The notes: generated from the sequence alone by a model not told the origin. DNA of 2,895 nt from a virus (IMGVR_UViG_648276660_000017); one strand, 5' to 3'; numbered from the stretch's first letter, positions 2,109-2,895 are shown. Translations and numbers: made by a program.

Positions 2109-2351
2109 ATGTTCTCTCTGATTCAACGTGGTCAGATATACACCGATAGCGCTGGCTATCCAGTAAAAATCATTCGTAGTACTGATCACTCAGTATTCTT
2201 CAAGAGGATGGATGGCTATCCTGGAAGAGTGTGCATCAGAAAATTCAATAATTTATTCGAACACATTGATCACAGAGAATATCACCAGATCCTGGCTGAA
2301 ACAGAACAGGAGAACCATCTGAAAAAATTACGTGCTATGCAAAGGAGATAA
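2109..2351 (+). CDS. Hypothetical 80-aa protein (possibly DUF4222-like) in an AT-rich moron-like pocket
   Basis: ORF in frame +3, ATG 2109, with GGGGA at 2096-2100 about 8 nt upstream; stop TAA 2349-2351. Translation: MFSLIQRGQIYTDSAGYPVKIIRSTDHSVFFKRMDGYPGRVCIRKFNNLFEHIDHREYHQILAETEQENHLKKLRAMQRR. The pattern G-x2-Y-x-D-x2-G ... V-x-F-x-R-x2-GY ... C ... F resembles small DUF4222-type phage proteins found near integrases, but this is recalled and unverified. GC is lower than in the upstream genes (about 37% in a 60-nt hand-counted sample, against about 53% in a sample of the DUF550/551 gene). Confidence 0.65.
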   Translation: MFSLIQRGQIYTDSAGYPVKIIRSTDHSVFFKRMDGYPGRVCIRKFNNLFEHIDHREYHQILAETEQENHLKKLRAMQRR

Positions 2352-2400
2352 ACCGGTAAAGGTGTTCGCGATAAAGGTGAATATCGGCAATGAATAACAA

Positions 2401-2430
2401 TCCTCGCACTCGCGGGGATTTCTTTTATCT
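2401..2430 (+). terminator. Hairpin plus U-tract (terminator- or attenuator-like), first of a tandem pair
   Basis: Inverted repeat tcctcgc (2401-2407) / gcgggga (2412-2418) with 4-nt loop actc: 7 bp including one G-U wobble at 2404/2415. Followed by tttcttttatct (2419-2430). Confidence 0.35.
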
Positions 2431-2458
2431 GAACTCGCTACGGCGAGTTTTGTTTTAT
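2431..2458 (+). terminator. Hairpin plus U-tract (terminator- or attenuator-like), second of a tandem pair, immediately upstream of the 55-aa gene RBS
   Basis: Perfect inverted repeat aactcgc (2432-2438) / gcgagtt (2443-2449) with 4-nt loop tacg, extendable by a G-U pair at 2431/2450. Followed by ttgttttat (2450-2458), which runs into the GGAG at 2459-2462. Confidence 0.4.
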
Positions 2459-2469
2459 GGAGATGATAA

Positions 2470-2637
2470 ATGCACTTCCGAGTCACAGGTGAATGGAATG
2501 GAGAACCATTCAACAGAGTTATCGAAGCAGAGGACATCAACGACTGCTATAACCACTGGATGATATGGGCGCAGATAGCGCATGCAGACGTAACCAATAT
2601 TCGAATTGAAGAACTGAAAGAACACCAAACCGCCTGA
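2470..2637 (+). CDS. Hypothetical 55-aa mini-protein (absent from the supplied ORF track, probably below its length cutoff)
   Basis: ATG 2470 in frame +1 with GGAG at 2459-2462 (7-nt spacer); stop TGA 2635-2637 sits in the loop of a strong intrinsic terminator hairpin. My translation: MHFRVTGEWNGEPFNRVIEAEDINDCYNHWMIWAQIAHADVTNIRIEELKEHQTA. Composition is balanced and protein-like. I believe I have seen near-identical hypothetical proteins next to xis/int in enterobacterial prophages, but cannot name a family. Confidence 0.6.
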   Translation: MHFRVTGEWNGEPFNRVIEAEDINDCYNHWMIWAQIAHADVTNIRIEELKEHQTA

Positions 2638-2650
2638 TGGCGGTTTTTTA
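2627..2650 (+). terminator. Rho-independent terminator downstream of the 55-aa gene and upstream of xis
   Basis: Perfect 8-bp stem aaaccgcc (2627-2634) / ggcggttt (2639-2646) with 4-nt loop tgat and a GC-rich core (ccgcc/ggcgg), followed by a run of six T (2644-2649). The hairpin followed by a T-run is oriented for + strand transcription. Confidence 0.7.
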
Positions 2651-2694
2651 TTGCCTGATTTGCAGGTTCGATTCCCTATTCGGAGATAGCACTC

Positions 2695-2895
2695 ATGCAA
2701 CACGAACTACAACCTGATTCACTGGTTGATTTGAAATTCATCATGGCCGATACTGGCTTCGGTAAGACCTTCATCTATGACCGGATTAAGTCCGGCGACC
2801 TGCCTAAAGCCAAAGTTATCCACGGGCGAGCAAGATGGTTATATCGTGATCATTGTGAATTCAAAAATAAGCTCTTAAGCCGCGCCAATGGGTAA
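2695..2895 (+). CDS. xis: Excisionase / AlpA-family helix-turn-helix DNA-binding protein, 66 aa
   Basis: ATG 2695 with GGAG at 2682-2685 (9-nt spacer); stop TAA 2893-2895 is the last triplet of the window. Translation: MQHELQPDSLVDLKFIMADTGFGKTFIYDRIKSGDLPKAKVIHGRARWLYRDHCEFKNKLLSRANG. The segment IMADTGFGKTFIYDRIKSG followed by a basic wing (GRARWLYRDHCEFKNK) has the layout of AlpA/Xis-type small winged-helix proteins. Position at the distal end of an early-left-type operon is where lambdoid phages place xis, just before int. Confidence 0.7.
   Translation: MQHELQPDSLVDLKFIMADTGFGKTFIYDRIKSGDLPKAKVIHGRARWLYRDHCEFKNKLLSRANG

Follow-up and report, generated by a model that had tools for sequence, protein, structure and literature searches.

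The 168-bp reading frame at positions 2470-2637 of a 2,895-nucleotide stretch of viral DNA (IMGVR_UViG_648276660_000017, hereafter the window) is very probably a functional protein-coding gene, the orthologue of orf55 of bacteriophage lambda (lambdap35, PHROG 676), carried in a cassette bounded by terminators. The gene is already known, annotated and modelled, and no new gene is added here. An earlier reading, made from the sequence alone, had proposed a genuine protein-coding gene that had been overlooked. The first half of this proposal is supported by frame-specific purifying selection, a kept spacing of the ribosome-binding site (RBS) and a confident predicted fold, whereas the second half fails, given that the same gene, lambda's orf55/lambdap35, is annotated in RefSeq lambda, HK022, HK140, HF4s and E. 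coli (by PGAP). The features concerned are the following, with coordinates in the window.

2397-2653, plus strand: mosaic cassette of 257 bp, comprising two hairpins, the RBS, orf55 and a terminator, delimited by alignment with lambda, HK022 and HF4s.
2399-2430, plus strand: hairpin 1 with its U-rich tail (stem 2399-2407/2412-2420; terminator scan; -13.1 kcal/mol, z -5.0).
2431-2456, plus strand: hairpin 2 with its U-rich tail (stem GAACTCGC at 2431-2438 and GCGAGTTT at 2443-2450; terminator scan; -11.9 kcal/mol, z -4.4).
2459-2462, plus strand: Shine-Dalgarno motif GGAG, 7 nt 5' of ATG 2470, read from the sequence.
2470-2637, plus strand: orf55-family gene of 168 bp, from ATG 2470 to TGA 2635-2637, encoding an acidic protein of 55 aa.
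2627-2649, both strands: 3' bidirectional terminator-like hairpin (stem AAACCGCC at 2627-2634 and GGCGGTTT at 2639-2646; the scan matches on both strands).
2695-2895, plus strand: excisionase gene (TorI / HK620-KplE1-type Xis; PHROG 66, 'excisionase and transcriptional regulator'; weak HTH_17 match).

In comparison with lambdap35 (NP_597778.1), the ORF product presents 95% identity (94.5%) over 55 of 55 residues, the three differences being D22N, N28D and T54A. The lambda gene, which is also 168 bp long, lies between ea8.5 and xis (NC_001416, nt 29118-29285). PHROG 676, labelled 'unknown function', is matched end to end (profile positions 1-55 of 55, E = 4.7e-39), and scans of the 55-aa protein against Pfam, NCBIfam and PADLOC matched no family. 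The homologue is annotated as a CDS in HF4s, in HK022 (with the note 'undocumented homolog present in lambda') and in HK140 (with the note 'similar to lambdap35'), and PGAP names it 'hypothetical protein' at every sampled full-length match in complete E. coli RefSeq genomes. Its name in lambda is orf55, the last ORF of the exo-xis region (PMC3824215; also PMC8614690 and PMC9239242), and it has been discussed in print since 2002. A fragment comprising orf73, ea22, ea8.5 and orf55 was linked to inhibition of host replication initiation in work that PMC9239242 cites. Besides protein length and identity, the window and lambda share the RBS, the two upstream hairpins, the stop codon within the terminator loop and the place directly 5' of the excisionase gene. 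They differ in their flanks, which in lambda are ea8.5 and the lambda Xis with its pI promoter, and in the window are a DUF4222 gene and an ASCH-gene remnant upstream and a TorI/HK620-type Xis downstream.

The signals that the sequence-only reading had attributed to this frame are all present: ATG 2470 is preceded by GGAG at a distance of 7 nt, the TGA lies in the loop of an 8-bp hairpin followed by six T (2627-2649), and a U-tract hairpin stands just 5' of the RBS (2431-2450, with a T-rich tail to 2456). A further hairpin with a T tract, at 2399-2420, had not been listed. Given that 51 ORFs of at least 20 aa exist in the window, several of them with 50-150 aa on non-coding frames, a 55-codon ORF is ordinary in length. 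ORF length is thus uninformative by itself, and it is conservation that sets this frame above chance. The omission of the frame from the ORF track is likely, and most simply, explained by a length threshold, the default cut-off of the ORF tool being 60 aa.

Since the E. coli-type copies are 93-100% identical at the amino acid level, i.e., too alike to inform, selection was assessed against three Klebsiella-type homologues with 73-75% amino acid identity. In this comparison, frame 0 presents a dN of 0.18-0.20, a dS of at least 2.6 or saturated, and a dN/dS of at most 0.08, while frames +1 and +2 present dN/dS values of 1.4-3.0. The codon-aware check proposed by the earlier reading thus comes out in favor of a protein. 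The variable sites at codon positions 1, 2 and 3 number 25, 10 and 47, respectively, with differences clustering at third positions and the frame kept. AGGAG or GGAGG is retained at a similar spacing in the diverged Klebsiella-type loci, despite the differing sequence that surrounds it, and the upstream hairpins are not conserved there. All 56 of the 56 distinct nucleotide alleles are intact, in a set of loci picked by protein similarity and hence biased towards intact copies, and in each of the 87 phage records matched by tblastn the alignment covers 80% of the protein or more. Frameshifts or stops in homologous loci had been named as what would speak for an RNA element; the frame is intact in every full-length copy examined. 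In both HK022 records (L001 and L108), a 1-nt deletion in orf55 codon 2, equivalent to window position 2474, is compensated by an upstream ATG (equivalent to window position 2457) that restores the frame, and the annotated product is a 59-aa protein beginning MEMINAFRVTG... The HK022 gene is therefore a natural frame-restoring variant. Judged by these sequence comparisons, the 55-codon frame is a real gene maintained by selection as a protein.

On the minus strand, an antisense ORF of 82 aa (2455-2703) was considered and rejected, with a pN/pS of 1.0-1.3, stops in one homologue and a start outside the conserved cassette. The 55-aa peptide is absent from the small-gene Ribo-seq supplementary tables of O157:H7 Sakai.

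The same data bear on the proposal that the region is a non-coding RNA or a cis-regulatory element in which the ORF is fortuitous. Such a proposal could appeal to the 95-100% nucleotide conservation among E. coli phages, to three stable hairpins, and to weak Rfam matches on both strands (STnc130 with 31 bits and STnc420 with 21 bits). However, a comparison of E. coli-type with Klebsiella-type copies shows a conserved protein despite saturation at synonymous sites, the upstream hairpins are not conserved, no full-length copy examined has lost the frame, and all Rfam matches lie far below their gathering scores (55 and 70) and mostly reflect the terminator hairpin. The non-coding reading is already contradicted here, and we give it next to no credence. 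In Rfam 15, no match reaches the gathering score; the best is STnc130 on the minus strand, with 31.1 bits versus 55, and the others have at most 27 bits. This sub-threshold match to STnc130, an Enterobacteria sRNA, covers 2618-2745 (minus strand) over the full model length in an alignment that is mostly terminator-driven. The corresponding RNA would extend from within the 5' region of xis/torI to the bidirectional terminator, which recalls the P22 aI antisense RNA.

The three hairpins of the cassette are predicted to be intrinsic-terminator-like, as each has a G+C-rich stem directly followed by a U tract. None of 200 shuffles folds as well as any of the three, and the terminator scan of the window yielded 10 sites versus 2.2 +/- 1.5 in shuffles, with four of the 10 belonging to the cassette hairpins. 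The loop of the 3' hairpin, TGAT, holds the orf55 stop codon, its T run occupies 2644-2649 (six T), and its fold has -13.0 kcal/mol on the plus strand (z -4.05) and -14.5 kcal/mol on the minus strand. The tail of hairpin 2 ends at 2456, 2 nt from GGAG and 13 nt from the ATG. Variation in hairpin 1 (82 loci) is limited to the loop and the closing pair. In hairpin 2, the frequent changes A2446G and C2436T both preserve pairing as a G-U wobble, and rarer single-locus variants at 2437 and 2444 break a pair. An extension of hairpin 2 that would sequester the Shine-Dalgarno sequence appears in the minimum free energy fold of 2390-2475, has an ensemble frequency of 0.065, and is absent from the centroid.

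Both ends of the cassette have been labelled as terminators in other phages on the basis of the same sequences. The HK022 record X51962 gives the name 'tL4 terminator' to the bases homologous to hairpin 1, and the HK140 and phage L records mark the hairpin at 2627-2646 as a rho-independent terminator. The P22 annotation puts this 3' hairpin on the opposite strand and makes it the end of the 485-nt aI RNA, the product of a C1-activated promoter. Unlike the window, P22 and L keep only the last ~45 nt of orf55. A search for 'tL4' in the collection of papers covered found no relevant one, and a search for P22 aI RNA/PaI yielded a single paper, on the phage L genome, in which the aI RNA is not taken up.

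In lambda (L003; alignment A1, columns 311-330), the motif TTGCGTGTAATTGC (TTGC-N6-TTGC) starts 2 nt after the terminator T tract; we take it to be the cII-binding -35 region of the cII-activated pI promoter. At the same place (2651-2663) the window has TTGCCTGATTTGC, with a 5-nt spacer. A search of the window for cII/C1 sites (TTGC-N6-TTGC) returned no exact match, and the one-mismatch count was at chance level. A P22-like antisense promoter is therefore not supported here, and no promoter comparable to the C1-activated one of P22 was found in the window.

Alignment with lambda, HK022 and HF4s is near-identical from ~2397 to ~2653 and unrelated on both flanks; on the right, immediately past the T tract, at least four distinct flanking sequences are found. 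Of 5,426 complete E. coli genomes, 2,658 carry the cassette, which occupies 4,048 places in all. Its parts are unevenly distributed among phages: the hairpin segment (2397-2469) is found in 260 phage records, the 3' end of the ORF with the terminator (2540-2653) in 167, and the whole ORF (tblastn) in 87. More records thus carry the hairpins than the ORF. About 85 phage records keep the terminator and have lost most of the ORF; P22 (L114, NC_002371.2, 2001-2064), L, 933W, Sf101 and HK633, for instance, have only the last 45-65 nt of the ORF and an intact terminator. Given that many phages have the hairpins without most of the ORF, the protein is dispensable, and the RNA-level elements may be the more strongly selected part of the cassette.

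The borders also show signs of repeated exchange. In some IMG/VR prophages (L027, 1600-2447; L028, 2094-2500), hairpin 1 alone or hairpins 1 and 2 sit 400-850 bp upstream of orf55, with other genes in between, and in L028 an inserted 103-aa gene reuses the ATGGAGATGAT start region. Since genes are inserted after the hairpins in some loci, the hairpins behave as recurrent recombination junctions. Just upstream of the cassette, at 2332-2397 (plus strand), the window has a 21-codon ORF, MLCKGDKPVKVFAIKVNIGNE, the leftover 3' end of an ASCH-domain gene. HF4s, L028 and Stx phages have this gene in full, with the same ending; in the window a DUF4222 gene (2109-2351) replaces the rest of it, which places a mosaic recombination junction near 2340-2350.

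Further upstream, the window holds accessory genes of the Ead/Ea22-like and dATP/dGTP pyrophosphohydrolase types, in addition to DUF4222. The cassette stands at the distal end of a prophage early-left (pL-type) operon, directly upstream of the excisionase gene, an arrangement that matches lambda, HK022 and HF4s. In a prophage of E. coli MS 198-1, which carries a cassette with a 100% match to the window, the next gene is named 'response regulator inhibitor TorI' by PGAP.

An exhaustive search of 1.84 billion representative proteins added only a handful of further clusters, with 40-55% identity; hence, the family is narrow. These remote homologues keep W9, N10, F14, E19, E21 and D25. Family members always lie in early operons, either after N or cI, in the nin region, or before xis/int: the homologue comes directly after N in L117, after cI/N-like genes in L111 and L121, after replication genes in L119, and before xis/int in L105, L107, L109 and L118. 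Given these varied positions, the role of the protein is not tied to excision. The terminator with the stop codon in its loop also occurs in L105, L106, L111 and L117, and is absent from L107, L109 and L118-L121. In L111 and L117 it stands at the position where lambda has tL1.

The earlier reading had also described the gene as an insulated single-gene unit within the operon. Terminator-like hairpins do stand on both sides of it, as that description requires, but the window offers no promoter-like site from which such a unit could be expressed: a sigma-70 consensus scan, the sole basis for the absence of a promoter, returned 0 sites versus 4.6 +/- 1.9 in shuffles. The gene therefore presumably relies on read-through from upstream and is not autonomous. 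In the lambda paradigm, transcription of this region is carried out by antiterminated polymerase from pL. By analogy, orf55 would have no promoter of its own and would be transcribed only by read-through from the early-left promoter, by a polymerase that the phage antiterminator has rendered resistant to terminators. The main task of the three terminators would be to stop unmodified polymerase from reaching xis/int, and the 3' terminator would also stop antisense transcripts, as the P22 annotation has it. Taken together, we consider this account of read-through, guarding of xis/int and antisense termination likely to be correct.

How much of the function resides in the protein is a separate matter. 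The terminators might be the selected elements, with orf55 as an optional cargo that persists by linkage and contributes little. The cassette would then serve as an insulator before xis/int, blocking leftward transcription that is not antiterminated and ending antisense RNAs such as P22 aI. This overlaps with the explanation preferred here and differs from it in which part carries the function. It agrees with the drop from 260 to 167 to 87 records, with the phages that retain the end of the ORF and the terminator alone, with the P22 annotation that makes the 3' terminator the end of the C1-activated aI RNA, with the position of the lambda motif 2 nt after the T tract, and with the insertion of other genes after hairpin 1 or 2 in some loci. 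Yet the protein is under strong purifying selection between lineages that are saturated at synonymous sites, and remote homologues are kept within operons without flanking hairpins (L109, L118-L121), which indicates the protein is maintained for its own sake. We therefore regard the cargo explanation as possible but doubtful.

Another option is that the cassette works as an autonomous moron, one of the promoter-gene-terminator units that lambdoid phages carry as insertions between their conserved genes, and that the repressed prophage expresses it to the benefit of the lysogen; we hold this to be quite improbable. The likeness to phage morons is in being a small accessory gene with sharp mosaic borders, in its presence/absence polymorphism among related phages, and in the terminator directly after the gene; the upstream terminators would moreover isolate it from the operon. 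Morons, however, have a promoter before the gene, whereas orf55 lies here in an early-left operon, is preceded by terminators and has no detected promoter, with 0 sigma-70-like sites in the window where 4.6 are expected. The end of the hairpin-2 U tract is only 13 nt from the ATG, and the gene of remote relatives is embedded in early operons, where it overlaps the adjacent genes. Transcription by read-through of an antiterminated polymerase remains the preferred account.

The location of the stop codon suggests an additional role for the 3' hairpin. Its 5' stem arm does double duty, as it also encodes the last residues of the protein, 54-55, which are disordered and variable. In reporters, an intrinsic terminator located on or beside a stop codon was largely repressed by the translating ribosome, and almost completely so at a few bases from the stop (PMC4824070), a result that also weakens the description of the gene as an insulated unit. 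By analogy, the 3' hairpin may end plus-strand transcripts only when orf55 is untranslated, and may act unhindered on the minus strand. It could then operate as a translation-gated valve: a ribosome close behind the polymerase would cover the 5' arm and transcription would run on into xis/int, while untranslated or uncoupled transcripts would terminate, so that expression of the excision genes would depend both on antitermination and on ongoing translation of the early-left message. We consider such a valve unlikely. The recurrence of the arrangement in L105, L106, L111 and L117 could mean that gene and terminator function and move as one regulatory unit.

The Orf55 protein has 6.6 kDa, a pI of 4.9 and a net charge of -6. 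Its structure was among the checks proposed earlier, and the AlphaFold2 model, obtained from a 16-sequence alignment, presents a pLDDT of 92.5 and a pTM of 0.72, with a compact beta-beta-alpha-beta fold composed of strands 2-9, 12-19 and 41-49, helix 23-36 and a disordered tail at 53-55. This agrees with a 2021 modelling paper, in which an Orf55 model of pLDDT 93 has three strands and one helix (PMC8614690).

As to function, Orf55 would be a small acidic modulator or inhibitor that binds a host protein early after infection or induction. It would count among the accessory functions of the exo-xis region, which are dispensable and adjust host physiology as well as the balance of lysis and lysogeny. 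For this joint reading we see about as much reason to accept it as to doubt it. The inhibition of a host or defence protein, to which the earlier reading had pointed, would suit a small protein with a net charge of -6, but PADLOC gave no hit and none of the structural matches is significant. As a second, independent reading, Orf55 may be a new inhibitor of a host nucleic-acid enzyme.

A more specific proposal was put forward in PMC8614690, whose authors speculate that Orf55 interacts with RNA polymerase in the manner of T7 Gp2. Orf55 would then inhibit or modulate the enzyme from within the downstream DNA channel, through contacts with the beta' jaw and with sigma70 region 1.1. In agreement with it, the best Foldseek match in the PDB is Gp2 in the E. 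coli holoenzyme (4lk0_M, E = 0.096, probability 0.97, TM 0.58/0.61, 23% identity), followed by RNAP epsilon/YkzG and p56. The BFVD matches are weak and mostly uncharacterised small phage proteins, yet a few are annotated as Gp2-like, one of them at 31% identity, and the acidity of Orf55 recalls the negative strip of Gp2. However, no Foldseek match in the PDB or BFVD reaches E <= 0.001, a search of PDB sequences with the family profile did not retrieve Gp2 even at E <= 10, and a single-sequence search of PDB sequences returned nothing meaningful. Two Gp2 arginines are needed for binding, and their Orf55 equivalents are N43 and R45 (PMC8614690). Of these, R45 is not conserved: the remote homologues have V, E, N, H or D in its place. 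Lambdoid phages, moreover, need the host RNA polymerase from the start of their cycle to its end, while T7 supplies an enzyme of its own. The modelled Gp2-like role thus seems improbable to us. T7 Gp2, the Gram-positive RNAP epsilon (YkzG) and phi29 p56 resemble Orf55 in size, acidity and origin in an early phage gene, and appear to resemble it in beta-beta-alpha-beta topology, but there is no detectable sequence relationship and the structural scores are below significance.

In the best-studied phage, orf55 is one of the few genes still uncharacterised; about half of all complete E. coli genomes carry it, and strong purifying selection acts on it. Its role is a modest, well-posed question rather than a surprise. 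The terminator-bounded cassette stands before the excision genes of many pathogenic (Stx) and commensal prophages, and the stability and induction of prophages would be better understood if the target of Orf55 were known, as well as whether transcription of xis/int is gated by the terminators.

A contig scan of assembled genomes gave no useful diversity, its yield being mostly lambda contamination in unrelated taxa. Loci with an orf55 identical to that of lambda (L004-L020) occur in assemblies labelled Shewanella, Pseudomonas, Chromatium, Bacillus-group, Kitasatospora, Bradyrhizobium and others, often on contigs of ~48.4-48.5 kb with low coverage, and are almost certainly lambda DNA contamination of those assemblies. 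The record of 'Campylobacter phage CJLB-4' (48,361 bp) looks similar: its orf55 lies at 29041-29205, as compared with 29121-29285 in lambda, and its product is 94.5% identical to that of the window, as is the lambda protein.
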